Program-made: the position numbers and the translations under genes
Notes under the pieces: model-generated
What the model saw: the letters and a program-made list of their open reading frames with translations, nothing else
The model's database searches: none
Told to the model about the DNA's origin: nothing
Shown: positions 3,914 through 27,838 of the stretch, in pieces
Layout: the number at the start of each line of letters is the position of its first letter
How positions within the stretch are numbered: the stretch's first letter is position 1
Assembly (NCBI GenBank): GCA_010405405.1
Contig: MU004235.1
Span: 1,871,539 to 1,935,538 of the forward strand
Direction: 5' to 3'
Length of the DNA: 64,000 nt
Origin: Microthyrium microscopicum
Lineage: Eukaryota

Positions 3914-5678
3914 ATGGCTACCGCTCCACTTCCGCCGAGTTTCTTACAGAGCTTACCGGTGGAGATCTTCCGCATGATTTTGGAGCAGTGTACAGAAGGG
4001 ACTAAACTTTCATCGGTCGCCCATCTTAGGCTTGTGTCCAGTGAGTTTGTCCACTTGGTTTTGGAACCAGCATTTTCAATGCGCACGCCTTTCGATATCA
4101 GATTTTGTTCGCATAGTGTTGAGATACTAACCAGATGCAGAGCCATTCGACTATGAATTCCAGCGTCAAATGGTAGAGAACGACCTGTTTCGCGAAAATT
4201 GGCACCCTCTACTTCCGAAATGCATGCCCAATGTTGTCGTCGCATATCTCATTCGCCAAGTTTCTCGGGATCCTGATGAGGACGGCAAAGTCGGAAATCA
4301 CCTCATCCAAACCATTCGCGATACCGCCGAAGATCTAATCAAAACTTTTCCCGACCCAGATCTGAACCTCGACAAATGCATCGAGAGCCTATGTCAAGCT
4401 ACGCTATTGAGCAGTGACCGTATAGGTCTTGACCGCTTACTGAACCTTCACGACTCGAAAGACGGGCCTGAAACATTAACACTGGGTGCAATACGCCTGG
4501 TACCAAGAACTGGGGGACTCAAAGTCAGAATACCTCGAAATGGTCCCTGGTTGCCCCAACGTACAAAGCACGAAAACTTGCTCGTTGCCGCAGCCTGTAT
4601 GGGCCTAACCCAAGAAGTAGCAGTCCTCCTCAAAAAAGGCATCAAAGACAACGCAACCTATTTTGGTACCGCCGTCACTGCAGCAATTCGAAACAACGAT
4701 AATGAGACAGCCTTTGCTCTATTTCCGCGACGCAAATATATGGACATACGATGGAAGGCGATATTCAAGGCCGCGGCATGGGCAGGAAACACTGAAGTCC
4801 TGAAGGAACTCTACAAGAAAACTCCGCTCTTCAACACTAAAAAAGGATGTTGCATTCCAGTCACAGCAACACTCGACGGACTCACAACTGCCGCTGGTCG
4901 TGGCCATGAAAACGTCATCCAACTCATGCTTCAAAATGACCCACATGTCCTTAGCGGCGCACTTGATGAATACCTCGAAGTCTACTTTGTGAAAAAAGGC
5001 AAAGATAAGCTTCACTCTATCCTTCTCGCGCATGCCGTCTGGTCTGGCCAGATGGCCACCGCCATACCACGCTTCGAGTACGATATTGACGTCAAAATGC
5101 AAGCATCAATAGGACCAGCTTCTCACGGCAAACTCGAGTTCGCCCTGAAACGCTTCGATAATAATATCGTTGACACCAATCCTAAGCATGTCGGTACCGT
5201 ATTCTACGTTTTCCGTCAAGCAGTGCGAGAAGGATACCTCGAGATCGCCGAACTATTCATCAAGCATGGATATTTCGACAAGCGCAATCAGTGTGATGAT
5301 GTGCTGCTGAATACTGTTGCAAAGCGAGGCTGGACTGAGATGGCTCGCCTTCTTAGTGAGCATGGAGTCCCGGTCAATACGCCACATTATCCTCACTCTG
5401 GCAAGAAGTGTGCTTTGTACTACGCCATTGCTAGAGGTCATGTTGATATGGTCCAGTTGCTATTGTTGGAAAAAGGCTGTGCCTTGCCAAATGCGGCTAC
5501 GATGCATCTATGGCTGAACGAGAGCGGAAAATATCGGAAGGACTCTAGGATTTCTGATCTTGTGGCAGAGGCTCGTGAGCGAATTGCCGTAGCAAACATC
5601 GCGGACCTCGTAGAAGAGGCGCGTAAGGATATGGCTGTGATGAAGGATGATACTGAGATGGACACTTCTGGGTTTTAG
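3914..5678 (+). CDS. F-box-like plus ankyrin-repeat protein (2 exons)
   Basis: Intron 4041-4140 (GTGAGT...CTAAC...CAG) joins FLQSLPVEIFRMIL...LRLVSKPF to the 502-aa ORF. Ankyrin motifs: AAGRGHENVIQLML, AVREGYLEIAELFI, ALYYAIARGHVDMVQLLL. Confidence 0.8.
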
Positions 5679-6561
5679 TCATCCCTTGACGATGCTGGTT
5701 TCCCTGATCTCGGGCTTTAATGCTCACGTACTCGCTGATTTCGAAAAGGTGGTTGTTCGCTTATGGACAGCGAGTATCGGTCATGATCGACGGAGAACCA
5801 GCGAGGTTTTGCTTTTGGTATTGGCTGAAGGGCCGGTGAGATGAAAACGGACGGGAAGTTTGCATGTCCGCCCGAGCAGGACTGGCTCGATACTTCTTTC
5901 TGTTGGCGACTGCTATTACATGAATCACAAGACACTCAGTACATTTTGCCGGTTCTTAGGAATCAAAAACCAACTACAAGCCGTATGTGTCCATTTCAGC
6001 TGTATTATATCGTATTTTGTTTTCGACTAAAGCAGTTTGGCAGTCCATAAAAACCGCCCCGTGATAAAAATCCAAGGTATAAAATGGTTATGATTATAAT
6101 GGAATGATTTAACAATAGACAACGTATCGGGCCCGTGTCATCGTTTATAGATGATTTTGACAGCCCTTATTCAGCCATGGAATGCTGTTTTTAGACTTCT
6201 GGCTTCAATGTGGTGATCCTCAGCTCCATGTTGGTTGTGACTTCACGAAAGGGATCCGCCTGCTCGAATATATGATAGCCCTTCAATCCACTCGATGCTG
6301 GCTATTTTGGCACGATGGTCAGTTTTCTCCCTTCCTGCATGGTACAATTTTGTTGTATAGCATTCTCGATATCTTAAGGTGGTGGATCAATTGGATCGAA
6401 GCGATCGCTATGAAAAGGCCTAACTTGATTGACTGAAGAAGTGGGATATCTTCCTCTTCTGCTGCACGAAGCATATTCTTTGGTTGTCAGTCTCCAGTGT
6501 TGATTCACTATGCCCAAAAAATGAACATTCTTAATGGACGAATGCCAATGCCCTTCCTGAA

Positions 6562-8047
6562 TCACCAAAGAGATTTCATCTTCTTTGCTTTGTGGTTTGT
6601 AGCAAATCCAGTGACCGCCCAGCCTGACTCTTCATCCTTGAGATCGAACCAGCATCCCAGAGGTAAATTTTGTTGTACCATATTCTTCACTTTCATTACT
6701 CCACTCACGCTCTGAAATTTTGCCTGGAGACTGAACTCCTTGAGATTGGCCAGACTACCATGGCTCAGTACAGTTTCGAAAAAGTCTTCCACATGTGCAA
6801 CTGTCACCAAATTTTCTTCGTCGGTGGCAGATGGCTTGTCCACTCTGATTATCACGAGTTTCGACAGCTTTACAAGGGGAAAGAACTTGAAGAACTGGGT
6901 AACTTCACTCATATGGTCTGCGAAAGGGCGGAATACCTCCAAACTGGCGAAACTGTTACTTGGAGCCATGGCGGATTCAGGCCGTAAGCCGAGGGTTTTG
7001 GCCGTTATGAGGCATTGTACATCTTTGATGGGCGATCTGCAGAGGCACAGGAGCACGATAGAGCCTTCCAAGTTCATAGACCAAGTCTTGATCCGTCGCA
7101 GAGCATGTAGGTTTATAATCGTTGTAAGTGAATGGGCTGACATGGCCAGGTTTCCACGCCCCGGGGGTTGTTGTATACCAACTTCTAGAGTCTCAAGAGG
7201 TATTTCCCACTTGCAGACATGATCTAGCATAGCTCCAAGACAATTCCATGGCGTCTCTTGCTCCCATTCCGTGTCATACTCAGGAATCAGTGGATCGAAG
7301 CGAGGGTGCCACCAATTTTCATCTGCGCCCCAGATTTTATTAATCTTGAGATGTTTGATATTGCTGTAAAGCAAGTAGCGTAACGGTATGACCTGATACG
7401 TTGGTCCGCAGAAAGTCAGACTGTCCATTCTAGGGAACAGGTCGGGACTTGCTCTCCACTCCTCCATCTCAGCGAAAAGGCCATCTTCGAGCACTGTTAT
7501 GCGATCCGTCAGGAGCACGATCGGCGGCGGATCCGGGCCTGTCCAATCGTCCTCAGGAGCCATTTGGCATGTGGAAAGATGATTAACATGCCTTGCATAC
7601 ATGTCGAAGCTAGACCAGTCTGTTTGTTCTAGCTTTCTCCTGAATCTCTGATGGAGAATTAGCTCATGCGACGACTAAAATTTGGCATCTTGTGGATGGA
7701 GCTTCACTACTGCTCCAACGAATGCTTCTTCTCACATGACATACCAGCTCCGAATTTCGGAAAACCTTCACACCATCACTCCTGACTTTTCCCTCCTCGT
7801 CGACCTTCACATACCAAAGACTTGCCGGGAAAGTTTTGACAATGTGTGCGAGTGATGGTACAACACGCCACAGATAAGGAAGCACCAGCGGAAAGAAAGC
7901 CTTGCAAGTGAGGCCTAGTGCTATCAAGGTCTCTCGCTCTTCAGCACTAGGTCTTCTGTCCTCTGTGCCCGTGTGTTCAGCTCTCTTTTCCTCGATGTTG
8001 TCGATAATGGCGAGTTGTATTTCAGGAATCGCTAGTGCTCGATGCAT
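6562..8047 (-). CDS. F-box-like family paralog 1 (most divergent member)
   Basis: MHRALAIPEIQLAII...LGLTCKAF...LWRVVPSLAHIVKTFPASLW, intron 7648-7744, then RFRRKLEQTDWSSFDMYARHV. The 3' end is uncertain. Confidence 0.75.
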
Positions 8048-9709
8048 GTTGCCCCGCTTCAAATTGACCTGGGCGACCTTCAACAAGACCAACGTAATTT
8101 GGCCTCCGCAAATTTGCGGAAAAGTAGAACGCTGACAAGGGAGATGGAGACCAACAAAGTGGCGAGTGGATTGAAGGGAGACTTTGGAGTGGTCAAAACC
8201 GTCGAAAGCTTCAGTGTACTGGTGTGAGTTGCACTTTCTATCCTCGTTGGATCAGATGTGTTCCTGCGTCTCCATTGGTTGCTTGTAATGTGCAGCTCTG
8301 GCAGAGACAGTACAGTATAATAATCGTGGTTTTATTTTCGAAAGCTAAGTTTCCTGATGCTACATAATCACCTGTTTCGTAAGTGAGATAAGGAAAGGAT
8401 GAAGCACAGCAATAACAGATACCTATTGAGCTCCCATAACGCTGCGACAACAAAGCAGAGTATTTTCTCAAGTCTTTCTGGTGAGACATCTACACCTTCC
8501 ACGGCCTAGAAACTAACCGAAAAAATCGTGCCTGGTAGCCCTACCAAGATTACCTCTACCGATGGAGAATTTCTCACGATCGAACACCAGATCGCCGACA
8601 TGTCGACATCGTTTCTTGCGATAGCCTTGGGGGACGAATGTTCTCAAGAGCCTTTCGCGATGGAGGGTGATGGCATCCTCTTTGACACTCCGGCTAATGT
8701 TTTGCAGCAGTGGTGAAATCCGTTCTTCCCCATTGTCGACCTTGACATGAGAACAGTAGTATGAGGGCGAAACAGGCGTTTTTGTATCGTGAGCCCGCGG
8801 GCGCCTGCGGCCCGCGAAATTTTCAGCACTAAAGTCAGATTGGCGATCAGATAGCCCTGCAAGAAGGAGGCCTCCAGTTTCCTTCTTTTGCGAATTGTCC
8901 CGAAGAAGATCGTCTGTAACCAGATCTCTCGTTGCGGCCTCCTACCAAGCGGTCGGTAAACTGTTCCGACAGAAAGGGACGCGTCCAAAGTGGTTTCCAT
9001 AGAATATCTGAAGAGCGTTCATGCTCGAAATGCCCCACGCTCAGAAGACTTCAAGAGCTAGAACAGACTCTGTAAGCTCAATCATAAAGTGGTGCTGCCG
9101 CGCGGTTGCGACTGATCCTCATGCATTTAGCGCGGTGACTTCCGCTTTCGGATATACTTTTGCAGATCCTGATAACAACTCTGAAGATGTTCGACAAGCA
9201 TAACAGGGTCTCCCCTCAACATCCACTTTGTTCACGTTGACTAGTGAAAGTCGTACATTCAGGCCGTTTGCTGCTGTACTTTCTGGTGCTTGGTTGGCTG
9301 TGAACAGTCTCGCGCGAGCCGTCCCAGGTCCAGCCTTGACCGATATCGATCTCTACCAGCTTCACGGATAGTCCCTATCAGTTCAAAGCAAACCCAACTG
9401 AATCACGTCCTTCGGCGGCCGGCGGCATACATATCAAGACCATGGCCGTCGCTGTTCCGTCGCCCTGCCGCCGGCGAACAAGAGCTCCGGTCTCCAGATC
9501 TCCAACTACATCCCACTAGGAAGAGTGGAAACTGACGAAAAGTCCCAGGCGAGACTTATGGAATCAGTGTTCGCAAAGGAAAGATCCATAAATTTGTGAG
9601 CAATTGGTCTGATATCGGTCGTAGTTATAACTCTCATGCACCAAGATTGAAAATAAGATTTGATCAAACTCGTTTTCGGGATTGCTAGAAACCATCTTCT
9701 ACCACAGCC

Positions 9710-11520
9710 ATGGCACTTCGCCAACGAGCAACGAATCTGAAAGACCGTGCAGTCACGAAGGCCAATGACCGTCTCCACGGACGCGGCTGGACCCTTCCTC
9801 GACAGGCAACCACTTTTGCGGACGATGGGGCGTATTCCAATGTCGATAGTGATGTTACCCCTCTTGACAGACGCACATGGACCTCGTGGACTATTCTTGG
9901 CTTCTGGTCCAGTGATTCCTTAAACGCCCAGGGCTGGGAGGCGCCGAGTTCTATCATCGCGGCTGGTTTGACGTGGAGAGAGGGTCTTTACTTGAGTAAG
10001 TTTCAGCCTTATAGAGCCTCGAGCACAAATGCTTACCGTGATACTCTAGCTGTGGTTGGATCATTGGTTGATACCATTCCTCTTATTCTCAATGGTGCTA
10101 TCGGTGCTCATTATCACATTCCATTTCCTGTGGTGGCTCGATCATCGTTTGGATTCTACTTCTCACGTTTTGCTATTATCGTCAGAGCTATCACTGCCTT
10201 GTTCTGGCATGCTATCCAAACATGGACTGGAAGTCAGGCTATGTTCCAGTGCATCCGTGCCATCTGGCCATCATTCAGAAATGTTCCCAACACCTTTTCA
10301 GACAGTGCAGGAATCACTTCTAATCAACTTATCGCCCACTTTGTCTTCTGGAGTCTCCAGTTCCCCATCCTGCTGATCCCTCCTCACAAGCTAAAATGGT
10401 TCTTCATCTTCAAGACCATCGTCGTTACAATCGTCGGTGTCGCCGTAGTCATCGCCATGACCAAGAAAGCTGGTGGAGTAGGAGACATCTTCGACCAGCC
10501 ATACGAGATCTCCGGCACAACTAAGATCTGGGTTACCCTCAGCTGCTTCTCCAGCGTCACTGGAGGCTGGTAATTTCCCCATCCCCATCAACCCTCAGCC
10601 AAATCGTATCTAACAATTTCCTCAGGGCAACAATGGCAACCAACATCCCCGATTTCACCCGCTACATGCGCAACCGCAACGGCGTCTACTGGCAAGGTCT
10701 CGCCCTCCCCATCTTCAGTCTCCTCATGGCCACCTTCGGCATCATCAGCACCAGCTGCGCCAAAGTCGTCTACGGCGAATACATCTGGTCGCCGATTGAT
10801 CTCGCTGACAAATGGGATGGACCATGGGGACGCTGCGGTGCCTTCTTTGTCGGCTTCTCATGGGTTGTTGGCCAAATTGGAACGAATTTGTCCGCCAACG
10901 TCATTTCGTGCTCGAACGATTTGACTGGCCTGTTTCCCAAGTACATAAATATCAGGAGAGGCGCTATCCTCGCTACTGTCATTGCGGGATGGGTTATGGT
11001 GCCTTGGAAGATCGTGCATAGCGCCAGCAGTTTGTTGACATTTATGTCTGGACTGTCGATCTTTTTGGCGCCGATTGCGGCTATGTTGGCGTCAGATTAC
11101 TGGATTGTCAAGAAGAGGAATTTCGATGTGCCGAGTTTGTATCGCAGATATGGGCGGTATCGGTATACGGCTGGTATCAACTGGCGCGCTGTGGTCGCGT
11201 TCTTGGTATCGGTCGTACCGAACATACCTGGTCTGGCGAAAGCTGTCAATCCAGCTGTGAAGTTGAGCGCTGGCATCGAACACGTCTACGATATCAACTA
11301 CCTTTGGGGCTTCAGCTCAGCATGTTTTACTTACGTGGTCCTGAGCAAGCTCTTTCCGGCGAAAGAGACGCTTTTGGATGCTCCTATCTACGAAGATATG
11401 ACGGTTGTGGATGGTGTGGAGTACGAAAACGATGGCACAGGCACATTGGGAAGAAATCTGGAAGTAAAGGCATATGATTCTCAAGAGAAGGTCCCAGCGA
11501 GTCATGCAAAGGACCTATAA
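9710..11520 (+). CDS. NCS1-family nucleobase/allantoin/uracil permease (Fur4/Dal4-like), 3 exons
   Basis: Motifs RRTW...GFW, HIPFPVVARSSFG, ATNIPDFTRY, PKYINIRRG, PWKI and DYWIVKK; multiple hydrophobic helices; introns near 9996-10049 and 10570-10625. Confidence 0.92.
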
Positions 11521-11711
11521 TGTCGAGAGCTATTTTACATGATTCATGTTGGCTACAGGTGTTGGAGGACGCTGCTTGTCAGGGCTTTCTATAGAAGTAC
11601 AATCTCGAGATTCAAACAAACCATTGTCATCCCAGGAGAGGCTAGTAGTTGGCGAGCCACTTGTCTTTCTGTTGTCGCTCTTGAAAATCAATAACATTGA
11701 GCCCTTCCAAT

Positions 11712-11807
11712 TTACCCCGAGACGGTCTTTTTGTCTAGAGCTTCATCCATGATCTGCCGCACCAATTCCGGGAGTCGTAGAGCGGGATGGGTATTGGCGA
11801 GCGTCAT
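11712..11807 (-). pseudogene. Truncated relic of a sixth F-box-like paralog
   Basis: Translates MTLANTHPALRLPELVRQIMDEALDKKTVSG*, matching MHRALAIPELQLLIL. DNA ctcgccaat-ACC-cat-ccc-gct matches (c/t)tcgccaac-ATG-cat-cgc at the starts of paralogs 2 and 4. Confidence 0.65.
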
Positions 11808-12405
11808 TGTAAGTTGAGGCTTCAACAGGTAAGGCCCGATATGGGAAAGCTTTAAGCAGCTGAAACTGAGAGCTTTTTGATGATGATGTTTATTGGCCGC
11901 TTCGATGAAGGGGCTGGTTGCGCTGGAAGGATTGAATATCGGTGACTCGTGGTGGAGGTAAGAGGAGGAGTGTGGTAGTGCTTTTCATGGAGAGTTTGGG
12001 AATGGAATGAATTCGCTGGGCGAGTCAAGATCAGATTTTGTTAAAGAAGTAACTGCCGCCTACAGGTGATTCTTTTCTTGGTATCTTACAGGTGCGAGCC
12101 AGCCGTGACTTTCCGTTTTGCATCGCGACTTCCAGCTCCCACTTCCAAACCCGCCTTTAAACTACTACCGAACAACCCGGAGCCGCTCTAGCAACCCTCC
12201 ATTGGGATGCCAGCCATAGCACTTCTTGAGGAAGATAGTAATGCAGGAAAAGAGCGCCTTCTGTTCCAGCTTTTCCTTCTTCAAAGCTCATCCGGATTGG
12301 GCAAGGATGGTGCTCGTATTGTCGGGCAATCGTTCCTCGAAGCAAATAGTACCCGGTCTGTCGCCGGGAAAGGCTCTCAATTTGCGAGAGCTCGTTTCAA
12401 AATAA

Positions 12406-14190
12406 TCAAATGGTCAACTGAATCACATTAGGGAAACACCGGCCATCGAGACAGAATGACTTCAATTGTTCATCCCACTTATATTCGCGCCGTTTCAGTA
12501 TCAACTTGCGGATCTTGGGTTTGGGGAAGTCAGACGGAAACCTTAGCCTCCTCATATCAGTGATTGCTCGATTGGCCACAAAGTCTAGCGTCAAAACCTC
12601 GAGATGTGGACAGTTCTCACAAAGCCAAATTACATGCTCCAAGTCAATCAAAGCGATTTCGTCTGCACTGTTGTTCGGCTCCCAAGAGGCCACAATCAGG
12701 TTGAGAGAGGCTATGGAGGGAAGACATGCAGCAATTTGCTTGAGCATGGAACCATCTAGCGGTCCAAGGTACGGTGCTATAATGTCAAAGCTTAGAAAGT
12801 GAAGCTTTGAGTGCCAGGAAAGAAATTTGAAAACCGAATTTCTCAAGCGGATTGACCCAGTGGCTGAGAAATGACCGAACTCAGATGCTTCGTTGTAATG
12901 CGTGTGTTCAATATTAAGAGAGAAATGACGAAGCTGCCCAGGCCCGTCGCTCACGGCCGGAGAGTCGAAGAAATCCTCCAAGGCTTTGTACGTTGGAGCT
13001 ATGAACGGTATTCCGGGCTGGAAACTGACTTCAATCTCCACACGTTGGAGAGACAAAGGATAGGCAAGCTGAGCCATCATTTCGGACACCAAATTGAGTC
13101 TTGAGATTGTCAATTTCAAAGTACGTAACTTCGGTAGAAGTGGCCCCTTGATCTTAGCCACGGATGTCCAATTTGTCAATGCATCGATTCTGCAGCCTAG
13201 CGACCGTAGTGGACAGTCTGCGAGTGCAAGGAGAAGTTGGTGATCTTCCAGTAAAGCCGGAAATATGTCGAGGCAAGTAAGATGAGTCGATTCTACGAGT
13301 TGTGTGAGGGGCGCTCGAAGTTCTGGCCAGTGAGCCGTTCTGGCTTTGAAGCTTAGCGAATTGAAGTCTCTGTTAGACGCTAGAGAGTTGAGGGTCTCTA
13401 TACATCTCTTCACGGTAGTCAGGGTTTCGAGTGCCGCCTGCGGCCGCGACCGCACCGGAAAGATGGGTTCATGATCGTGGAGGCGACAAGAAGCATTACC
13501 GACCGCATTGAGTTGTAAGCTCTTGAGGTTGTTATTGAAGAGATGCCGCATTGGTGTTACATCGCACTCCATACCTTGAGATATAGCAATATCTTCAAGG
13601 TTTGAAAACCATGTGCTGGCTCGTCGCATTTTGCTCATGTGCATAAACACAGAAGGATGAATCCGGGGCCAATCAGGCCAGGATTCCCAATTATTGCCTA
13701 GGCCATTCTGATTGATTAGGCGCTTAACACATCCCGCATACAGATCAAAACGAGTCCAGTCATCTTCGATCATTTCTCGGACAAAAACCTGTCTGATGTC
13801 AGTCTGGAAGTTTGTTTGTCTCAATGTCACTCGCCAGGATCAGCTGAACAAACTCACCAACCGGTTTGGCCGTAGAACTGTACGAGCACCAAGAATGTAG
13901 ATGCTTTGTGAATCTTCGTCGATGTTCTCATCCTTCCAGAGAGAGGGAGGAAATGTCTTGATCAACGAAATCAGCGAATCTGCCTGTTGCCATAGAATAG
14001 GGTAGGCCATCTCCCACAATGATCTACAGCAAAAGCCGAAGTTACGAATGTCGACCCTCTGCTTGTGAGAAAGTGCGTTGCTAGGATCTCCTTCGAAGGC
14101 AAGTTGGTCGCGTGTGTTGAAAGCATCATCAGCAACGCCCTCCACCAAGATTTTGTACACGATATCGTAGACAGTGAACAGGCGATGCAT
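12406..14190 (-). CDS. F-box-like/LRR-like paralog 2
   Basis: MHRLFTVYDIVYKIL...FGFCCRSLWEMAYPILW...LIKTFPPSLW, intron 13789-13857, VFVREMIEDDWTRFDLY...PRIHPSVF...WLCENCPHLEVLTL. Confidence 0.8.
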
Positions 14191-14918
14191 GTTGGCGAGT
14201 GCACTGGCGTCAGAGATGCCGGAGGCGTAGAGGCGCGTGAGGAGTTCAGTGATGGAATGACTTATGGAAAAGATTTGGACGACGAAGACAGCAGCCTCAA
14301 TAGCTCAGCATGACCACGTCGTGGAAGTCGGAAAGTTTGAAAACGATGATAGAAGCCAGGGAGGAGAAGACTAACGGAGAAGAAAAGACAACTTTGTGGT
14401 TGTGGGGTAACGTGTTGGTGTGGAAGCGACTAGAAGTAGCAGATTTGCTTTGGGAAAGAGCAAGGCAATGGTACCTTCCTATCTCGAATCGTGACTTCCA
14501 TCTACAGCCTGGTCTCTATCGTGCTTTCCCAGCTAACGTTCAAGGAATGCTAGCTCCCATCAGCTCCGATGTCTGCCAGGAGATCTTTAGAAGCAAGACG
14601 GATATGATTGCTGAGAGGTTAAGAGATATACTTATTAGATTATCGAATGATATTTGCCGAAAATTTCCATACAGGCACAATGAAGCAAGGCAATATAAGC
14701 AAAGACTTTTATTCTATCAGTGGCTACCTCTGTACACTACACAGTTCCTTATGTTATCGCAGTCGGTTGTCCAGTATCGTTATGACAAAGCTTGCTAACA
14801 TCACTTCTAATCCGATCTGAGCCATTCAAGAATTTCCAAAAGCGCTAGATTTACCTCGGAGAGGTTCGTGACATGAGCATAAAGTGGCGCCATGCAGAGA
14901 CCAAGGTGTTCGGTAATA

Positions 14919-17364
14919 CTAGGCGGTATCAAAAAGATTGTTCTTTGATGAAATTTTGCGGAACTTGATCCAATTTGAGAGGATAGGGTCAGGGGCTACT
15001 TCAAGGCCTGGGAAGCTCTGGGCGAGATACTTGGTGATTTTCCGAGGAATGGATCGAGAATATCTGAACTTTAGCAGTTCCAATGTCCGGATACTAGGTG
15101 TTGGCTTCTTCCAGGCTACATTGGTGGGTATGTGAGATGTGTCTACACCGCCCAATTTCAAGGTCTGTAGATGGGGACATTCGTAGCAGAGCCACACGAC
15201 ATCACTCAAGTCCAACGACTGATGGAACATTGACGTATCATCACTTGTATCTTCATCGGAGTTCTCATGAGGGCTTCCGTCAAGATTTCTACGAGAGGTG
15301 TTTCCAGAGCCTCCACCGAATCTCTGATCAAAGGTCATTTCAGAGTCTCTGCCAGGGCTCTGTTCAGAATCATATACAGAGTTACCGTCGGAATCGTTGT
15401 CAGAATCATCAGAAGAATCATCAGAAGAGTCATCAGAAGAATCATCAGAAGAATCATCGGAGGAATCATCAGGATTGACACCGGGGTCTTTCTGAGAAAT
15501 ATCAACGGAACCTTGGGCGAGACTATCATCTGAGCTTTCGTCAGAGCTTTCGTCAGAGCTTTCGTCAGAGCTTTCGTCAGAGCTGTCATCGGAGAAGGTG
15601 TGATTAGAGGTGTGATCAGAGATGTTTTTGCGGTTAGATCTCGAGTCTTTCTTCGCATTTTCAGCGGAGCTTTCATCGGAGCTTTCATCGGAGGTGTTAT
15701 CTGAAATTTCATCGCGGCTTACTCTAGCGTCCGTCTTGGACTTCTCGGCGAAAGCTTCTTCAGAGCTTCCATCGGAGGTGTCGTCAGAGGTGTCATTGAA
15801 GCCTTCAAAGCCACCTGGCTCAGCGAAATTAGCATACCGCATGTAAGAATCCGAGTCGTTCTCATAGACGCTGGCGAAGCCCGTGTAATAGTCGTCGTCA
15901 AAATCGTTGTAAAGGCCCATATGGAAGTCATCGTCAACATCACTATCAGAGTCATTATAAGTAACAGTCCTATTGTCGAGGCTGAGATGCTGTATGCAAG
16001 GAAGCGACTCAACGATATACTCCAGCAAAGGCCTATCCAATTGCCCAGTCAAGAATGGCAATACCCCGAGCGTTAGGTTGGTGAGTTTCGTGTGCCACGA
16101 AAGGAATTTCAGCAAAGAAGCTCTTGCGATCTGTTGCTGCTTGGAAGATGATGGCGAATGGCCTTTGAGAAGTTCGCCAACCAACGCAAAGCTTTGGAGC
16201 TGGCCGGAGCCTTCTGCCCAAACCAAAGCGTCAAAGAAGAGCGAGAATTCCTTGCACGTTGGAAGAGACAATTCTCTATCGGAGGGAGTATCGAGCTCGA
16301 CACAGAGAACGCGAAGAGCATGAAGATTGGCCAGTTTTGGTAGAATGGTCGTTAGATGAGCCAACTTTGGGACAGTCATCGTCAGGCTTGTAAGATTCGG
16401 AAAGAAAGTTTCGAGGTTCTCAGCCACTTTGAGCCAATGTTGCGGCGAATCCATCTGGCATTTCAGCGACTGTAATGAGGATTTGGCAAGCGTAAGGAGA
16501 AGCTCTTCGTCCTCCAAGAAGGCGGGCACAACACCTAGATTGACGATGGATCGGTTTTCGATAAGTAGTATGAGATCTTTTCGTAGCATTCGTAAGTGCC
16601 CCGTGGTTGCTTCGAAATTCAGTGAGTTGATGTTAGGCGCTGACGAAAAAAGGCTTTCTAGAAAGCTCTTTAGAGTGATGAAAGTTTCTTTGCGTCCCTC
16701 GTGGCGCCCATCTGAGTCGTTATGAGCCAGATCATCACTTGGCATACCGACTGAGGAAACATGCAAAGACTTGAGAGCTCCATTGAAGAGTTGTCTCACC
16801 GGAGATATGTCGCAGAACAATCCCTGCTCAAGTTCAAGTTCTTGAAGTTTCGGGAACCAAGTCGTAGGATGGCGCCATTTAGCCATCTGGGTAAACACAG
16901 AAGCATGAACACGAGGGGTGGAAACGTCCCAGGCACTTTCATCTTCCGTCTCGTCGTAGGGGACGAGCGTACGAACGCACTCCGAATACATGTCGAACCG
17001 GATCCAGTCTTCCTCAACCATATCTCGAGTAAATGTCTGCTTAGGGTTAGTGAGTGAAGGAATAACTCTCTTGAATGTCCAAGAATAATATGTGACTTAC
17101 GATTTGTTTCTGCATATTTCCTCTCAAGCCAGTAATTTTACCATGATGGGTGGTGTTTGAGACTCCTTCATCTTTCCAGAGATCTGGTGGGAATGTCTTG
17201 ATCAAGCATTCGAGCGACTCAGCTTCTTGCCAAAGAAGTGGATAAGCCGATTCCCAGAACGCCTTGCAACAAAGACCAAAGGATTTGATACTCGCAAAGT
17301 CCTCATTTGTGATGTTCTCCAATATCAGCAACCGAATTTCGGCAATTCCAAGAGCGCGATGCAT
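14919..17364 (-). CDS. F-box-like/LRR-like paralog 3 with a long acidic Ser/Asp insertion
   Basis: MHRALGIAEIRLLIL...FGLCCKAFWESAYPLLW...LIKTFPPDLW, intron 17037-17100, TFTRDMVEEDWIRFDMY...WLCYECPHLQTLKL. Confidence 0.8.
15400..15592 (-). repeat. Two coding 12-bp tandem repeat tracts, (SSDD)n and (SSDE)n
   Basis: Plus-strand units tcatcagaagaa (about 15400-15472) and gagctttcgtca (about 15527-15592), inside paralog 3. Confidence 0.9.
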
Positions 17365-17488
17365 TTTGACTGATGGAGTGGTGTCTTTGACGAAGCAGTG
17401 ATAGCGTTTATCGAATCCGATGGCAGGTAGAGATTACACTTCGCAAATGATGCGAGGGCAGATGTTGTGGTGAATGAGAGCAAGCTCT

Positions 17489-17762
17489 CTGATGAAGAAT
17501 TAGTAGCGAAGTGCGCAAGCTCAAACTATTGAGTCTTTGATGAAGAATTAGTAGCGAAAATGAGGTTGTGTGGAGCGTTGACGCTCACCTGCTGACTGAA
17601 AGCGAAAAGATTATTGAGGGAAGGAGCGAGGCAAATAGCGCCTTCCTGTTCAGATGTTGGTCCATTGTGACTTCCTGTATAGGTTTAATCGCCCGTAGTC
17701 CCTTCCTGTTTGATGCTGGTCCATTGTGACTTCCTCTTTTAGCCCTCCTCTATTTGATGCTG
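17489..17762. repeat. Local direct duplications upstream of paralog 3
   Basis: tgatgaagaattagtagcgaa occurs twice (about 17490 and 17538). ccttcctgtt..gatg.tggtccattgtgacttcct occurs twice (17641 and 17701), with a partial third copy. Confidence 0.85.
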
Positions 17763-18119
17763 TAACCACCCATCGAGTGGCCACAACGCTCAATGTACTT
17801 CCACGGCTACAATCTATAAAGAAAGATAATCGAGTGTCTTGTTGCCAAAAGACGATGCTGATTTTCTCGACTGGTTATAGATAGTAATGGAAACTACCTC
17901 ATCTTATATGTAGAAGCGGTAGTGGAAGCCATGGAACATGAGAGGCACATCATTTATTTTGCCTGTTCTGTCGATTGTTTGTGATTGTTCAATAGAAATA
18001 CAATTGTAATAAGCATGAGCAGCACCAAGAAAACACGTCTGCGTAATCAAGGACTGCTCGTGGTATTGCTCCAGTCTGAGGTTTCCTCGTCCGGCCGGCT
18101 AAGCTCTTGCCCAGCAGAT

Positions 18120-19912
18120 TCATAGCAAAGGCTGTGATGTAGGAGTGATAGTGTCTGTCAAGGCTTTTTGGACGAAAACAATCCATTTGAACAGATGGTC
18201 CAAAGGACACGCTTGAAAACCAGGGAACGTTCTGTCGAAATACCGGACAACTTGATCAACACGAGATTCCTTTAGCGGTAGTTGCCCAAGTCCCAAGCAC
18301 CGGAGTGCAGGCATTCGGTCCCTCTCCACTGGGTTCGGGATTCGAGATAAATCGACACCTTCTAGGGTCAAGTTCTCCAGATCAGGGCATTGGAAGCAGA
18401 GCCAAACAATGTCATCCAAGGTAAGTAGTTGTGGCGGTTCTTCCCAGTCCTCATTCTCACATGTCTCTATCAATTCAAGATTCTGTACGCGGGATAGGAA
18501 TGGAGCGATAAGCTCCAAGAAAGGCTTGTCTAGGCTCAGGGCTATCATCTCAAGGCGGAGAGTGATAAGCTGTGAATGACATGCCAGAAAATCCACCACT
18601 GAAGCTCTCAGACGAGCTTGTTCATGGTCCGAAGCAACAAAGTCCTCGGGGGGATCGGCCATTCCCGAAAGAACGAAGCCCCTAAGGCGGCCTTGTCCTT
18701 TGCTCGTCACCAAAGCATCAAAGAGTAGGAGTAATTCTGCGTTTGTAGGTGCCGCGCACTCGACGTTCCAAGTAAAATCAAGGTCGATCCGGAGACGGGA
18801 GAGAGAAAAGCGGCTGGCTAGGTGTACTAAAATTTCGACTGCGTCCTTGAGCCTTGGGATTTTCATTGCTAGATTTGTAAGATTCTGGAAGAGTGGTCCA
18901 ACATGATGGGCTACGTTCAACCAACTCTGTGATGAGCTTACGCAACAGTTGAGAAATTTCAATGGAGACTTTTCGAGTACGAATATGAGCTTTTCGTCTT
19001 CTAGTAATGCTGGGGATATTCCTAGACTTGTAAGTTCATGGGTCTGCACGAGGGTAATCATCTGGCTTTGGAGTTGTTGCAAATGTGCCGATGTTGCCAT
19101 GAAGTCCAGGCACTTGATATTTGGTGCTAGCCAGCATAAACCTTCCAAGAAGTTTTCCAACATAGCGAGGGTTTGGTCTCCTTGTTCTTCAATGCCATCG
19201 GTATCATCGGGGTCCATATCTAGATTGATACCGGATACACCGACGGATTCGACAGTCAAGAAGACCAGACTGTTGTTGAAAAGATTTCGTAGATAGATTA
19301 TGTCACAGAGCCATCCTTGGGGAACAACGATATCTGCAAGCCGTGGAAACCATGTTGAGGGGTGACGTGACCGGCTCATCCAGGCGAAAACATTGGCGTG
19401 GATTCGAGGAACTTCCTCGCTCCAAGGTCCAGCGTCTGGCACTTCCTCAAAAACGGTAAGCTTTTGAACACATTGGGAATATAGATCAAAGCGTGTCCAA
19501 TCATCTTCTACCATCCTGCGTGAGAAGTTCTGGGTAGCTTTAGTAAGGTCGTACGAGTACGGAAGTGGCTAAAGATGAGCCAGTAATGACAAAGAGGTGT
19601 ACTTACGATTTGCTTTCGCGAGTTACTGCCGGTGGAGATATTTTGGTCCCAGAAGTTGGCTTGATCTGCATTTTCAGGGAGCTCGTCTGTCCACAGCGTC
19701 GTCGGAAACGTCTTGATCAAACACTCAAGCGACGATGGTTCTCGCCACAGAACTGGATATGCTGCCTCCCAGAACAATTTGCAGCACAGGCCATAGGAGA
19801 GAAGCGAATGCTCTGGAACTGTCAACGTCCGGCTGCCGTCTTCGAACGAGACATCCACTATGTGATTCAGAATTAGTAGCTGCAGCTCCGGGATAGCAAG
19901 AGCGCGATGCAT
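18120..19912 (-). CDS. F-box-like/LRR-like paralog 4
   Basis: MHRALAIPELQLLIL...YGLCCKLFWEAAYPVLW...LIKTFPTTLW, intron 19530-19606, NFSRRMVEDDWTRFDLY...WLCFQCPDLENLTL. Confidence 0.8.
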
Positions 19913-20654
19913 GTTGGCGAATGCTGTAGAATTGAGAGCTGTAGTGATGGAGAAAAGATTTGATTTTGTGGTAGTTTTGGATTTCTTGGGCTGGCATGCT
20001 CGGAAGACGCATTTGGGAAGGCGCGACAGTGGCTACTGCCTGTTTTCCTATCGTGACTTCTACTCTAGGGAATATTAGGTATGCTACTAGGCTCCACCGA
20101 CTGGGGTGCCGAATGTACTAACAACGAACGTCTTGAAAGAATGCAATGTGAGGCATGCCATCGTTTGGAGAGGATGCTGGTAGCCGTCGCCATTGATGTG
20201 CTTGTACCAACGATCCTCCCTGAAATCAAGCGGTTGCTATCAAAGTGAGCTAGTTGAAGCTGAACTTAGAGGTTAACTGAAGCCGCGATCGCTGACAGAG
20301 CCCTGCCAGCAAAGGAGTAGATTGTTAGCATGACTTATTCATGACTCTCATCTCAAATGAGCGCATAACAAATGTGTCCATACCGATGGCTGTAACCACG
20401 TCCTTTGAAATATCGCACTCAGCAAAGTATCCAAGCCTCCACGTCCTCTATGGTGAGAAGCGTGTCCATGATTGATTGCCTGCACTGGAAGAGGAACGAT
20501 GTGATGTTGATGGAATTTTTCGAAATCAATTACTAAAGAAACTTTTGTATCAGTACACAGTACCTCCCGATTTGCCCATTGAATGATTAGTAGTAATACA
20601 AGAAATATTTTCTGTCCCCGCGCGCAAGCTAATTTCCAGAGCAGTTGTAAACGC

Positions 20655-22682
20655 TCATCGATCATGTGGACTAGCACTTGATTCAAATCCAGTATGACCA
20701 ATCATGCAATTCAGGTTCCTTAAGGGAGTGAGCCTCAACAGAGGGAAACTCCTTCGCAGAAACCAGGCAAGATGTCCGAGCTGAAAATCATAGACCTCGG
20801 AGCCGTTAAGATCCAGATGTCTAAGCATAGATGTCTTGTTTGTCTTTTCCAGGCCAGGTATGGTATGACAATCAATTTTGCCTAGAGTCAGGCTGCGTAG
20901 ATCTGGGCACTGGCCACAAATTCTTACAACATCGCCGATATCTAGGGTGCACTTTTGTCTTCCGAGATCAAGAGATCGAACCTGAGATTTATTAGTGTAT
21001 GATTCATGATACGCGAGCCAATGAACGCGCTGGGAGCCATCGAGTAAGATGGGAGCCACCGTGTTTTTGGTCTTATCGAAAGTCGACAAAAGCTGGGTTG
21101 ACACAGGGGACTGAAAGCTTACCCGAGGAATGGATGCGATTATCATCTCAAGAAATGGTCGACTAAAAGGCTCGACAAATGGTCTTTCCATCCAGAGGAC
21201 CACATCGGTGAGATTCGGGTGTGAATAGAGCGCTTTCCCGATCGTATAGGCAACGCGAAGTTGTTCGGCAGTCGGTCCTGTGGCGTGCGACCCTTCAATA
21301 TGGCTCCTACGGCCGCTCCGAAAAGTTAGATTGCGCAGCTGACCATGGCCATCGGTCGCGAGTAATTCGAAGAAGTCCTCGTAGTCTTTGCTAGTAGAAG
21401 CTGTAAAGTGTGATGTATCTTGTTCATAGGTCAATGAACGCAGAGAGTGTGGGTAAGCTATTCTACTTATGAGCCCAGTCAGCAAGCGCAGACTACGAGG
21501 CTTCACACTCAACTCAATGAGACTAGGGAAGAGAGGCCTGGAATATGTTAGCATATGGTTGGATATGAAACCATGACACTTCCATCACGTTCGGTGGAAT
21601 CCATAGCACTCGATTATAAACGCTTTACATGGGTGCCATCGAATGCGCGGGAACATACGAGAAGTTTTCCAGGTTCATCGGAGGTTGTCAATATCTTACC
21701 CAATGAGTGAAGCGGCGGAGACAAAGTCTGTCGAGTCTTTGAGCTCACAAGTTAGAGATGTCAGTGACGCCTCGGATATTGCTTGAATAAGTTCTTCTCC
21801 GTGTAGAGGTGCAAGAGAAATATCCAAGGTGGTCAAATTGGTTCGTGTTTGAAGGAGTGTAATGATTTGGTCCTCTAGGTTCTCAAGATCCTTGGGATCA
21901 ACGACTAATCGCAACGTGGTCAAATTTGGCGCAGAGCGGCAAAGACTTTCCATAATAGTCTCGTTTGCATTGTAAGTCCAATTTATCCATTCTTTGACTC
22001 GAAGTGACATATCTTCGCCGCTGGCTTCATCTTCCAATTCTTCATCGTCGATACACAGGTTGGATGATTGGAGAAAAAACGACTTGACATTCCTATTGAA
22101 GAGAATGTGGATTGGTTGAACGTCAAAGGGCAATCCATCATAACTCTCAATGTGTTCCAGAGCCGGCAACCAAGTCGTAGGGCAGCGCCACGTAGCCATG
22201 TGGGTGAACACTGAGCTGTGAATTCGAGGAGTGGTAATGAGATCCGTATCTGCTTCCTCATGATCTCTATCGGAATATGGCGACTCGTATATGTGATGAA
22301 GTTCCAGCATTCGTACGCATTGAGCATACATATCGAATCGGGCCCAATCCTGGGCAACCATGTCGCGTTTGAAGACGAATTGCTTTAGTAGCATACCTTG
22401 GTAAATGGAATCGTCTTCCTGCCAACCGGCGGGAAGAATTCGTGTTATCTCGACATCTTCCCAAAGGTCGGAAGGAAGTGTCTTAAGAAGGGATTCGAGG
22501 GAAGTTGCTTTGCTCCAGAGAAGAGGATAGACAACAAGCCAAAGACTTTTACAGCACAGCCCAAACGAGAACAATGTCAGATCTTGGTCATAACTGGGAC
22601 GGTACGGTTTCTCGAATGTACCTTCAACCACATTTTCGAGGATCATCAATTGTATCTCGGGAATAGCGAGAGCACGATGCAT
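20655..22682 (-). CDS. F-box-like/LRR-like paralog 5 (different intron set)
   Basis: MHRALAIPEIQLMIL...FGLCCKSLW...KQFVFKRDMVAQDWARFDMY with no intron. Inferred introns 21538-21699 and 20982-21122. C-terminal RICGQCPDLRSLTL. Confidence 0.78.
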
Positions 22683-22952
22683 GGTGACGGAAGATAAGTA
22701 AGTGATTTTGGCGGGCTGAATGCATATGCGAGCGAACTGACTGGACAGGCTGGGGATGAACAACTTGAACGGGCTCGATGTAGATCTTGATGCGAGTACT
22801 GTTGGCGGGCTGGATGCAGATGAGGGCGAGCTCAATAGGCAAGTTGAGGAAAAAAGAGGCCAGTTTCGATTTTTCAAGTTTTGGAGGTAACAGATTTGGG
22901 CGGGTTGAGTTTCCATAGTGACTGCCTCGTTTTAGGATCCAATGCGGTCGTG

Positions 22953-23022
22953 CCTTCCTTCAATTCATGCCGTTCTGTGTCGCGCCTTCCCTCAATTCAT
23001 GCCGTTCTGTGTCGTACCTTCC
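22953..23022. repeat. 32-bp tandem repeat (about 2.2 copies) upstream of paralog 5
   Basis: ccttcc(t/c)tcaattcatgccgttctgtgtcg(cg/ta) twice, followed by ccttcc. Confidence 0.85.
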
Positions 23023-23320
23023 ATTCCAAGACGACAAAGTCTTGGCGCACTCCCATCAAGTGCGATATCCGCTACCACACCTTTTGAGAGCATGTTCTCG
23101 AGTATCCATTCTGCCAGTTCGACGGGAAAGAAAGGTGTCAAGGATAGAACGTAAATGGTGGGAGCCACATAACTCGATGGGAATTGCCATTTATTTCGTC
23201 GGCCGGACGGCGTGCATAGTATACCTGGGTTGTGATAAGTTCTACATGGTCCTTTGAACTTATCGAGAGCTGGCGAACGAAGATAACGAAAGTCGTGGTA
23301 TGAGATACTACTCATGCAAT

Positions 23321-25301
23321 TCAGTCGATATCCTCATCTTCCCTGACATGACCTCTCCCTCCCCATTCAAACCATCTCTTCCCGGCCACAATCACAAGCC
23401 TCGTCTCCACAACCCAGAGCCCAAGCATAACCATCTCTCTTATGGCTTCACAGACAACAACCTTGCCCACCAAACTTGCCACCGCTTTTATCGACATCCT
23501 CTCCGGCGCCGGATCCAAGAATCTCAGAAATCGCTCACTTCTTCCTATCGGTCCACTCGGCATCCCATGTGTATGCACCCACCAGCGTACCACCTGCGGC
23601 AGCAGCCACGCATCAATCGAGAGCAGACCCATCGAGCAGATGCTGCTAGTGACGATCGAGGCTAATCTCTTCTGCGGAAGCAGCGTGAGCGGTGTTTCAC
23701 GACGGGTGCGAGCCCCGCGACGTCGACGCACGCGGTGGGTCGGTGGAGGGATCGTTTCGTAGTACTCAATGTTAAGTTGGGGCATAGGGCCGTCCGCAGA
23801 CTCGACCTCGGTAATTCTGATGCTGTGATTTACTTCCTCGGGGTTGGAGTCGATCGGGGAGTTTGATGATGCGGAAGGAGGATTCACCCGAGCTGAAGAT
23901 TGAGAAGCTGGAGGATCTTGTTGAGTGTTGGCTTGCGTGTTGTCTGGTGTTTGACTGGACGGCTCTGCTTGATGGGAAATTCCATCTGTTGATAGTGGGC
24001 CAAAGTCTAGTATCAAGCCCATAGGTGGCAAATCAGGCGCTGGAGTATTGACCGGCTGGTTGACAGTAGCAAAATTTTCCAGGTTCAATTCAAAACTACC
24101 AACTGGCAGGTCCGCGTTGGCTAAAGTTTCAAGAGCGTGGCCGGCAGTTCGTTCCTCGGGACGATGCGCATTCTGTTCCACATCTACAGGTATGGGCATT
24201 TCCGCGGTCGCGGGCGTGTAGCTTTCTTCTTCCTCTCCTGTGTATTGGAACATCTCTAGGATGAGCGGTCTTACAATCCGATGAAGAAGGTGAGTGTGAA
24301 CAACTCGTCTAACGGCACCTTTGTAGAAATACAGCCACATTGGTACACAGCTCATCTCGAACCGTAGTGGAAACACGGGGTTGAACGGATTGAAATCGTT
24401 TATATTTGGAAACATCTTGGACGTAGATATGAGACCGAGGGAATGGACTAATCCATGAAACCGAAGAGGGAAATCGACGAATTCGTAAAATATATGCAAT
24501 CTGGAATATCAAATGAATTAAGGTACTTGTCATAGTAGCAGGGAGAACACACCCAAATGACACGTTGGTCGTCAACGCTATCAGTTTTTGCCTCGTGCGG
24601 AGGTTAGATATCTTTGCAAGTATCATTCTAAAGATGAAATAGCAGGTTGCTGGTGCGAGTAATGGTGGTTGGCAGACCCTTTCCAGGAGGTTAGCAGGAG
24701 CTCCAGCAAATCCAAACATCCACGGTCCAAAGAGGGTATAATCCTCGGCAACAGTATAGGCAAGGGTGTCTTCAGCTTTTGGAGGAAGTGCCTAGCCTGG
24801 GTCTTAGCATTGGTCGAATCGAGTGGGAGTTGTTTGGTAAGAGACTTACTAGCAGTCGGCACATAACGTTTGATATCCAAGTCTCGGATAAACTTGAGAT
24901 GATAATGCTAGCTAAGGTTGTAGGCACCAGTATCTCTTCCTCAGCACGAACGATTTGATGATCAATTTCGTCGTCAGTCTCTTCGGCACGTTCAACAACA
25001 CCAAACACGCAAAGCACATCATTGGCAGCTCGTCGTAACTCTCTGCCCATTTGCTGTGATCTCGGATTGATTGGTCGATTTCTTTCATCATATTGCTGAA
25101 TATCTTCGGGATATTGGCCGTCTAAAAGTTCTATGGGACGCGAGCTACCGGTTGTGTTCGTGGATGTCAGAGTATCCCAGCCAGATTCCCATGGCGGTGA
25201 CCAGATCGAGCGGCCCTAGAATAGTTAGTTAAACATGAACTTTACATAATAAAGAGCACGCTTACCCAGGCAAGGTTTTCTAGATACGGTAACCGGCCCA
25301 T
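23321..25301 (-). CDS. Uncharacterised multi-exon protein, probably membrane-associated and conserved in filamentous ascomycetes
   Basis: MGRLPYLENLAW|GRSIW...IQQYDERNRPINPRSQQMGRELRRAANDVLCVFGV..., spliced to the 392-aa ORF ending KRWFEWGG. Internal exon boundaries are approximate. Confidence 0.6.
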
Positions 25302-25698
25302 GATGAAGTTGTCACCGGTCGAGGTCGATGGATGGAGAGAGACGACGCGCCGTATTTGTACACATGGTTTGCGACTGTTCTATCGTGTCTGACATCACAA
25401 CAATCACAGATCCTGGAACGCAGACTGAAAGAACTTGTCAAACTGCACACGCGTGTTTGTTGGCAAGCGCCTCAAAGAAGATGCCCAGTATGATGTAGAG
25501 AAGGAAAGGAATATCATGATTGGAAGTTAAGGCAAGAAGGGAGCTAACGCACGGCCCACAACGCCAAGATTTCGTGCAGTTCTTGTCCAATTTTTTTTTT
25601 GAAAGAGTTCGGCCCACCACCACTCTTTTCCTACAAATCCGCCTTTTGCGCCTGCACTGCTACTTGCTTTTATTTCAGCAGAGAATCCAAGGCGCGTC

Positions 25699-27429: not shown

Positions 27430-27838
27430 TAGCGATTTGTTATACCCAGCCTTGCCAGCCAAAATAGTATAGTCTAAACATTACCCAAATAATGCTATGC
27501 CTTGAAACTTGACCCCACTATTTTGTATTGCTAAGCTCCAGCGATGCCGTGGAGCAATGAAGACAGATTCATTGAGGGACAAGAATCTGCATACAAGGAG
27601 GCCCGATAATTCGGCGAGACCCCATGCTTGAAGGCTTATGCTACAGATTAGGCAGCAGTTTTGTCGCAGAAATCATGTACTCGTCAGACTTCATGGGCCA
27701 TGTTCAGTTTTTGTCTATAATTACGTCCAGTTTGACTGGCTTCGGCTAGCTCAGAGCAACAGGGAGAAGGTGTGCTTGGTCCAATGAATCAGATACAGCT
27801 ATTGGACTCGGAGTACAGCAGCCCTCTACAGATCCACA

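Follow-up and report, generated by a model that had tools for sequence, protein, structure and literature searches.

F-box proteins determine which targets an SCF ubiquitin ligase recognizes. In fungi, the closest described counterpart of the genes analysed here is the expanded F-box family of mushroom-forming fungi (Agaricomycetes), which is described by Krizsan et al. (10.1101/349894) and Nagy et al. (PMC10282164). Explosive tandem expansion of F-box genes is presented as a hallmark of mushroom-forming fungi in the former, and the latter holds that fungal F-box genes evolve so fast that orthology gets erased. The window, that is the whole stretch of 64,000 nucleotides that was analysed, carries five minus-strand, head-to-tail paralogues (c1–c5) at 6562–22682, where 6562 is the first base of the c1 stop codon and 22682 the A of the c5 ATG. 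Its proteins match those of Microthyrium microscopicum (Dothideomycetes) letter for letter, in agreement with the ascomycete host assumed when the letters alone were read. We propose, with somewhat more confidence than doubt, that the array comprises five transcribed, anciently duplicated F-box/LRR genes, which encode SCF receptors and are long-resident members of a Dikarya-wide family.

The array, first recognized in the sequence-only reading, is real: when searched against the window by tblastn, the five gene models matched one another with E-values of 1e-4 to 1e-88, and pairwise identity among the aligned parts of c1–c5 is 22–44%. The features of the array are as follows (X5, a sequencing run guessed to be RNA).

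6562..8047 (−): c1, exons 8047–7745 and 7647–6565, stop codon 6562–6564, 462 aa
7648–7744 (−): coding intron of c1, skipped by an X5 contig
8372..8422 (−): 5'-leader intron of c1, 51 nt, X5 contig joint 8369->8421 with the cut at +2, GT..AG ends checked
9689..11520 (+): NCS1 permease gene (purine/cytosine/uracil/thiamine/allantoin), interrupting the array and not a member of the c1–c5 family
12406..14190 (−): c2, exons 14190–13858 and 13788–12409, 571 aa
14919..17364 (−): c3, exons 17364–17101 and 17036–14922, 793 aa
15158..15938 (−): insert of ~260 aa, Ser/Asp/Glu-rich, inside the LRR region of c3, bounds approximate (from the alignment)
17037–17100 (−): coding intron of c3, skipped by an X5 contig
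17535–17588 (−): 5'-leader intron of c3
18120..19912 (−): c4, exons 19912–19607 and 19529–18123, 571 aa
20655..22682 (−): c5, exons 22682–21700, 21537–21123 and 20981–20658, 574 aa

The interrupting gene, located between c1 and c2, had been correctly named as an NCS1 permease, to judge from two matches to Pfam PF02133 (E 4.1e-34 and 1.9e-52). Its transcript starts upstream of 9689, and GT..AG joints in X5 contigs define introns at 9072–9130, 9569–9624, 9996–10049 and 10569–10624. Across the whole window, tblastn with the five models returned zero matches at E<1e-3 beyond the five loci, and hence no sixth copy. An open reading frame at 11715–11984 (−), part of which weakly resembles helix 1 of the F-box, was considered as such a copy and rejected, its E-value of 0.36 among 1320 ORFs being not significant.

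The models of c1 and c4 are identical to the public proteins P0001 (100% over 462 aa) and P0002 (100% over 571 aa), respectively. For c2, the public database listing holds just a 224-aa C-terminal model, P0004, which is 100% identical to c2 residues 348–571. The public c5 model, P0003, includes a further 78 aa upstream and removes another 21 aa. The most diverged copy is c1, which lacks the C-terminal LRR cap motifs found in c2–c5, while the insert of c3 contains 12-nt tandem repeats at 15402–15472, 15532–15584 and 15659–15693. The ordered signature claimed from the letters was found in all five copies, with a deviant first motif in c2, where F-box helix 1 reads MHRLFTVYDI and is devoid of the Pro-Glu pair. 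The accompanying claim of a common intron at the signature position, between '..KQI' and 'xFxRxMVxxDW', is borne out in four of the five copies, c1–c4 (in c2 as a prediction from splice signals only), whereas c5 reads straight through the site.

The array is probably transcribed, as the five genes are covered by spliced contigs of the probable RNA run X5, with splicing seen wherever a joint was listed. These joints confirm the coding introns of c1 and c3 as well as both in-frame introns of c5, 21538–21699 (162 nt) and 20982–21122 (141 nt), which are skipped by an X5 contig. Over c2, an X5 contig spans 12064–13528. Among the matches listed, no X5 joint was present for the predicted introns of c2 and c4, or for the 63-nt intron that the public model of c5 has in addition.

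The c1–c5 proteins appear to combine an F-box with an RNI-type LRR solenoid. The AlphaFold (AF2) model of c4 (pLDDT 85.3, pTM 0.87) places helices at residues 8–20, 31–43 and 45–55, after which strands and helices alternate, and the corresponding helices in the c3 model span residues 8–19, 23–32 and 34–47. The top VIA-align row for c4 is FBXL2 in complex with SKP1 (6o60_C; Z 20.0, rmsd 4.0, 362 aligned), and further rows include FBXL17 (6wcq_B, Z 19.4; 6w66_B, Z 18.9) and RNase inhibitor (Z 16). Foldseek matches of the same model include KDM2A-SKP1, D3/MAX2, COI1 and TIR1. When compared with PDB sequences, the family profile matched FBXL2 (9.9e-23) and TIR1 (5.7e-21), followed by MAX2, COI1, SKP2 (3.8e-12) and FBXL17. 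The VIA-align rows and the profile matches together identify an RNI-type LRR solenoid at the C-terminus. The proteins would begin with a three-helix F-box-like module, in which the loop joining helices 1 and 2 is variable, and continue through a short linker into a solenoid of ~16 RNI-type leucine-rich repeats. We suggest that the F-box docks on Skp1 of the SCF (Skp1–cullin–F-box) ubiquitin ligase and that the LRR surface selects the substrate. The most probable role of c1–c5 is that of SCF substrate receptors. Tandem duplication and fast divergence would have produced five receptors with different targets, c3 gaining a long acidic loop and c1 losing the usual C-terminal cap.

A profile search of 1.84 billion representatives revealed only one close protein outside the genome, P0005 (E 1.7e-43), a 'jgi: hypothetical protein' located on a 6,496-bp contig. 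Outside the clade of c1–c5 and P0005, the best profile E-value was 2.8e-18, with the rest being weaker, and the remote matches are 15–24% identical to c4 (alignment A3). An HMM built from 121 remote matches alone, themselves picked by the window-derived profile, scores c3 at 236, c4 at 230, c5 at 223, c2 at 199 and c1 at 155 bits, and the copies are collinear with it end to end over profile positions 4–477 of 518, with c1 reaching 336. Among the 146 non-window matches listed, 33 start with MH[RKHQ], 72 contain a DWxRFxxYA-like linker and 113 a CPxLxxLxL-like motif. In the ESM Atlas, all but one of the clusters nearest to c4, among the matches listed, are labelled 'commonest Basidiomycota' (score 0.98, 203–207 of 256 features), compared with a single Ascomycota cluster (score 0.95, 155 features), and the remote match P0008 falls into the same neighbourhood as c4. 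The basidiomycete label of the remote matches derives only from these cluster labels and from the MH../DWxRFxxYA motif, which we take to be the signature of a basidiomycete (mushroom) F-box family. Moreover, the Atlas covers only clusters of at least 50 members and therefore favours the hugely expanded families of mushrooms regardless of evolutionary history. Judged by these comparisons, c1–c5 belong, if remotely, to a large F-box family of fungi, the big Atlas clusters of which are predominantly Basidiomycota, and the family expanded in Agaricomycetes was recognized correctly from the letters. Word-indexed protein searches retrieved only the query or proteins of the window, and metagenome contigs scanned with the single proteins P0005 and P0002 contained zero relatives.

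The F-box assignment must be weighed against the possibility that the genes are relics in decay or serve outside SCF ligases, with a degenerate F-box that has lost its binding to Skp1 and an LRR domain that works by itself. This alternative, which we consider improbable, would fit the lack of a match to the Pfam F-box models PF00646 and PF12937, both for the ORF pieces of the five copies (E<=0.1) and for the full proteins P0001–P0003 and P0005 (E<=0.01), as well as the inserts of 8 to ~35 residues between F-box helices 1 and 2, the helix 1 of c2 and the uncapped C-terminus of c1. The isolated N-terminal domain model yielded no Foldseek match, and in the wide VIA search its F-box rows were weak (5ibk_E, Skp1-F-box, Z 3.5, rmsd 2.3, 44 aligned; 9xzj_F, Z 3.5), ranking below generic helical rows of up to Z 5.2. 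However, the five copies have uninterrupted reading frames of 462–793 aa, all covered by X5 contigs, and the core positions I14, L44, W45 and P59 (c3 numbering) are conserved across the 49 rows of alignment A4. Relatives of the same layout do pass PF12937: 14 of the 29 remote relatives scanned match at E<=0.01, with stretches that align to c3 residues 8–48, and four reach the curated cut-off of 24.3 bits (P0027, 38.8; P0012, 28.3; P0006, 24.8; P0083, 24.7). An assembly artefact, or basidiomycete contamination fused to ascomycete DNA, is raised only by the basidiomycete-like look of the family; no support for it was found and its probability is negligible. Indeed, the public proteins sit on a 2,506,003-bp contig, GC is even across the window (0.43–0.50), and a single X5 contig links c1 to the flank down to 5001. 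Two Logan contigs of the sequencing run X1 cover 5001–15561 (25,169-nt record) and 15555–24000 (16,232-nt record), both extending past the compared stretch, and the sole break lies in the simple repeat of c3; in X1 and X4 alike, the contigs derived from DNA reads break at ~15555, within the c3 insert. X1 may be the source sample and thus speaks for contiguity rather than independence. Because the read-derived contigs hold the array and its flanks together, the array is neither contamination, as the sequence-only reading had argued, nor a chimera.

That reading had also proposed a horizontal transfer, of which we see no positive sign. Host-unlike composition or codon use, expected for a recent transfer only, is not seen in the array: GC3 is 0.46–0.52 compared with 0.47–0.62 in 11 neighbouring ORFs, and RSCU values of the array correlate with those of the neighbours at 0.555, in practice the same as between two halves of the neighbours (0.557). 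A recent transfer is excluded, and the copies are old and probably long resident in the Microthyrium lineage. An ancient transfer of one Agaricomycete-type F-box gene from a basidiomycete to the Microthyrium lineage, followed by tandem duplication and acquisition of host composition, is an unlikely origin in our estimate; slightly less likely still is its fuller form, in which a mushroom-type F-box/LRR gene passed from Basidiomycota to Microthyriales, was retained, underwent five duplications in situ and became rewired to the ascomycete SCF. In its favour are the signature and full-length collinearity shared with a family with mostly Basidiomycota Atlas clusters, and the single close relative outside the genome. 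Inter-phylum transfers are documented in fungi, though in the opposite direction, from Ascomycota to Physalacriaceae (10.1101/2022.11.10.515791). The literature search brought up no account of F-box genes moving from one fungal phylum to another and no paper naming 'BT63DRAFT'; papers naming Microthyrium microscopicum, among the matches listed, hold nothing on c1–c5 in their titles or the starts of their abstracts. Against an ancient transfer stand the low identity and weak E-values of the remote matches, the unremarkable composition, the one or two coding introns per array gene, with lengths resembling those of the NCS1 neighbour, and the preference of the Atlas for mushroom families. Furthermore, the nesting inside the donor group that a transfer was predicted to leave was not seen. 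In a quick tree, unrooted and without taxon labels, c1–c5 join P0005 in a clade with SH-aLRT 100, all 32 remote rows, which were chosen by the window-derived profile, lying on the other side, and the branch to this clade is the longest inner branch (0.83+0.25). The clade has a support of 98 in a 127-row FastTree, and in neither tree, both being unrooted with poorly supported backbones, is it seen nested among the remote rows; the sister pairing of c1 and P0005 has a support of 18 in the quick tree versus 90 in the FastTree. We infer that the genes more likely arose by vertical descent, accompanied by rapid divergence, despite the predominance of Basidiomycota among the nearest Atlas clusters listed and despite P0005 being the only close relative outside the genome among 1.84 billion representatives, with no nameable ascomycete orthologue. 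The family itself would span the Dikarya, evolve fast and have undergone explosive growth in mushroom-forming fungi.

As it stands, the array is an ordinary lineage-specific gene cluster. It is a small, old array of the mushroom-expanded family in an isolated Dothideomycete lineage and shows that the family either is older than the split of Ascomycota and Basidiomycota and survives patchily, or moved from one phylum to the other. Both answers would help to date the family, and a transfer, if true, would be a rare crossing of a regulatory (non-metabolic) gene family from Basidiomycota to Ascomycota.

Compared with known systems, c1–c5 share the layout of an F-box, putative in c1–c5, followed by a long LRR domain with plant TIR1, COI1 and MAX2/D3 (Foldseek E 2e-7 to 1e-6; family-profile E 5.7e-21 to 7e-17), but the TM-scores to c4 are just 0.31–0.45 and a ligand pocket is not evidenced in c4. 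With animal FBXL2 and FBXL17, solved together with SKP1, they have in common a curved RNI-type LRR solenoid behind an F-box that is likewise putative in c1–c5, the three alignments to c4 (Z 20.0, 19.4 and 18.9) extending over 353–362 residues at 12–14% identity; c1–c5 differ in having more repeats and the DWxRFxxYA linker, which is absent from FBXL proteins. In contrast to the Agaricomycete family, c1–c5 reside in a Dothideomycete, have a longer loop between helices 1 and 2, do not reach PF12937 and lie, in the tree, at the far end of the longest inner branch from every member sampled. Nevertheless, they resemble this family in length (~500–600 aa), in the N-terminal 'MH(R/K)xLxIxEI ... C(K/R)xF ... 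LW' F-box-like module, in the 'FxRxxxxxDWxRFxxYAxRV' linker and in an LRR body that ends in 'CPxLxxLxL', as well as in their tandem arrangement and fast divergence.

The array is a real set of five diverged F-box/leucine-rich-repeat (LRR) genes, c1-c5, all of which are covered by contigs of X5, a public run that is probably RNA. Stop-to-stop open reading frames (ORFs), together with scans for a common ATG-CAY-CG start and for splice sites, give the following models:

Exons 8047-7745 / 7647-6565, minus strand: c1, 462 aa
Between c1 and c2, plus strand: NCS1 permease gene (PF02133)
Exons 14190-13858 / 13788-12409, minus strand: c2, 571 aa
Exons 17364-17101 / 17036-14922, minus strand: c3, 793 aa
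Exons 19912-19607 / 19529-18123, minus strand: c4, 571 aa
Exons 22682-21700 / 21537-21123 / 20981-20658, minus strand: c5, 574 aa

Both the count and the positions agree with the sequence-only reading: in tblastn with the five models the paralogues match each other at E-values of 1e-4 to 1e-88, and the whole window holds no further locus at E<1e-3. The reported interruption of the array by the permease gene likewise stands, and the ordered motifs put forward as a family signature are present in all five copies, with the first motif deviating in c2. Pairwise identity is highest between c3 and c4 (41-44%) and lowest between c1 and the other copies (22-31%). Array order is in rough agreement with the tree: c3 and c4 are neighbours and each other's closest copy, c2 is next, c5 lies at the far end, and c1, the most diverged copy, resides on the other side of the permease gene. 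Just downstream of c2, a short minus-strand ORF (11715-11984) ends in '..HPALRLPELVRQIMDEAL..', which is similar to F-box helix 1; its match to the family HMM is not significant (E 0.36), and it may be a relic or a chance likeness.

Several GT..AG intervals retained in the DNA runs are absent from the contigs of X5, the RNA nature of which is a guess:

7648-7744, minus strand: c1 intron
8372-8422, minus strand: c1 leader intron
17037-17100, minus strand: c3 intron
17535-17588, minus strand: c3 leader intron
20982-21122, minus strand: c5 intron, 141 nt, in-frame
21538-21699, minus strand: c5 intron, 162 nt, in-frame

Four introns of the NCS1 gene are also skipped. At the junction of '..KQI' and 'xFxRxMVxxDW', four of the five copies have an intron in phase 0, predicted in c2 and c4, whereas the reading frame of c5 is continuous across that site and its two introns lie elsewhere. 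Because c1, which is basal in the clade, carries the family intron, its absence from c5 is more simply read as a loss. The c5 introns are unusually long compared with the others seen here (51-97 nt), and the 141-nt intron falls at the same site as an acidic insert of c3. This insert forms a Ser-, Asp- and Glu-rich loop of ~260 aa (window ~15158-15938, minus strand), is partly made of 12-nt tandem repeats, and contains the ends of read-derived contigs of the DNA runs X1 and X4. We also note that c1 and the plus-strand NCS1 gene stand head to head (8100-9700) and that a single 5,531-nt X5 contig combines the minus-strand c1 introns with a plus-strand intron (9072-9130), so that the two transcripts either overlap or were merged during assembly.

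The host is indeed an ascomycete: the public proteins P0001 (462 aa) and P0002 (571 aa), from a source contig of 2,506,003 bp, are identical to c1 and c4, respectively, and are titled 'hypothetical protein BT63DRAFT_... [Microthyrium microscopicum]', a Dothideomycete. The public models for c2 (12406-14190), c3 (14919-17364) and c5 (20655-22916) look imperfect. Copy c2 is represented just by P0004, a 224-aa C-terminal protein, no c3-identical record is present among the 150 matches listed, and P0003, the model for c5, begins at 22916, 78 aa further upstream, and removes an additional 21 aa, a removal with no supporting joint among the contig joints listed.

Six public runs contain the array stretch, and the contigs of four were compared with 5001-24000. 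In X1, Logan contigs place 5001-15561 within a 25,169-nt record and 15555-24000 within a 16,232-nt record, the only break being the simple repeat of c3; X1 is possibly the source sample, such that its contigs speak to contiguity rather than independence. The contiguity with host-like flanks that had been read from the sequence is thereby confirmed and, with GC even across the window (0.43-0.50), contamination or a chimeric join is very unlikely. X6, which was sequenced for a different study (2019; organism C), has twelve contigs of ~200-320 nt on 9363-23297 in the 99+% identity class at a depth of ~3; its sample therefore contains small amounts of this strain or of one very close to it. Proteins of neighbouring ORFs include AA9, ankyrin, WD40, GNAT, SOD, OPT, HET, DAHP synthase, GH3 and MFS. 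Around the array lie ankyrin-repeat (4131-5678), twin WD40-repeat (25603-29089) and HET-domain (54815-56002) ORFs, a combination characteristic of non-self-recognition regions in fungi.

The array, which resides in an ascomycete genome, is part of a rapidly evolving fungal family that was already known. Searched exhaustively with HMMER, a profile of the copies recovers 195 representatives at E<=1e-3; 12 of these reach <=1e-10 and five <=1e-30, four of the latter being the window's own and one P0005, a JGI hypothetical protein from outside the genome (1.7e-43). Conversely, when an HMM is built solely from 121 remote rows, the copies reach 155-236 bits and are collinear with it along nearly their whole length, and among the 146 listed matches outside the window's own, 33 begin MH[RKHQ], 72 have a DWxRFxxYA-like and 113 a CPxLxxLxL-like motif. 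These results show the signature recognised by pattern to be genuinely that of a family.

The further proposal, that these basidiomycete-looking proteins were acquired by horizontal transfer, stands as a hypothesis. Recent transfer is ruled out, and an ancient transfer from a basidiomycete into the Microthyrium lineage appears unlikely to us. In its favour, named ascomycete relatives are absent from the matches found, and in the ESM Atlas c4 adjoins F-box clusters labelled 'commonest Basidiomycota' (score 0.98, 203-207 of 256 features), a label of the clusters and not of individual HMMER matches, as well as one Ascomycota cluster (0.95, 155 features); the remote match P0008 has the same neighbourhood. 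However, the Atlas search covers only clusters of at least 50 members, which biases it toward mushroom expansions; mushroom-formers carry 67-1,199 F-box copies per genome, compared with 60-90 in other filamentous fungi (10.1101/349894). Against transfer, or neutral to it, are the following results. Remote matches are only 15-24% identical to c4, and codon use and GC3 of the array match those of its neighbours. A 127-row FastTree (the five copies and 122 matches of 400-700 aa, leaving out 24 of other length and four own records) groups the copies with P0005 (support 98) over an unresolved backbone. In a 38-row IQ-TREE mixture tree from a quick search, for which P0005 and 32 remote rows, most of the latter with intact N-termini, were picked by hand, this clade (SH-aLRT 100) stands opposite all others on the longest inner branch, and nesting is not seen. 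Such isolation is to be expected under vertical descent too, because F-box genes evolve fast enough to erase orthology (PMC10282164).

Pfam identifies nothing in the five copies besides a weak LRR_9 match in c3, but PF12937 (F-box-like) is found in 14 of 29 scanned remote matches at E<=0.01, four above its cut-off, and these stretches line up with c3 residues 8-48. Homology to such Pfam-positive relatives makes a predicted F-box in all five copies well supported. The AlphaFold model of c4 (127-row alignment; pLDDT 85.3, pTM 0.87) has three N-terminal helices followed by a strand-helix solenoid, which, together with the structural and profile matches given below, establishes the LRR class. Folded separately, the N-terminal domain (pLDDT 77.7) has no Foldseek match, and the F-box rows that VIA returns for it are all weak (Z 3.5, rmsd 2.1-2.3) and stand amid generic helical ones. 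We infer that the copies bind Skp1, and they are probably SCF substrate receptors.

Among known structures, the c4 model most closely resembles FBXL2-SKP1 (Z 20.0) and FBXL17 (Z 19.4), then NLRP and RNase-inhibitor LRRs; Foldseek adds KDM2A-SKP1, D3/MAX2, COI1 and TIR1, and the family profile matches PDB sequences of FBXL2 (9.9e-23), TIR1 (5.7e-21), MAX2, COI1 and SKP2.
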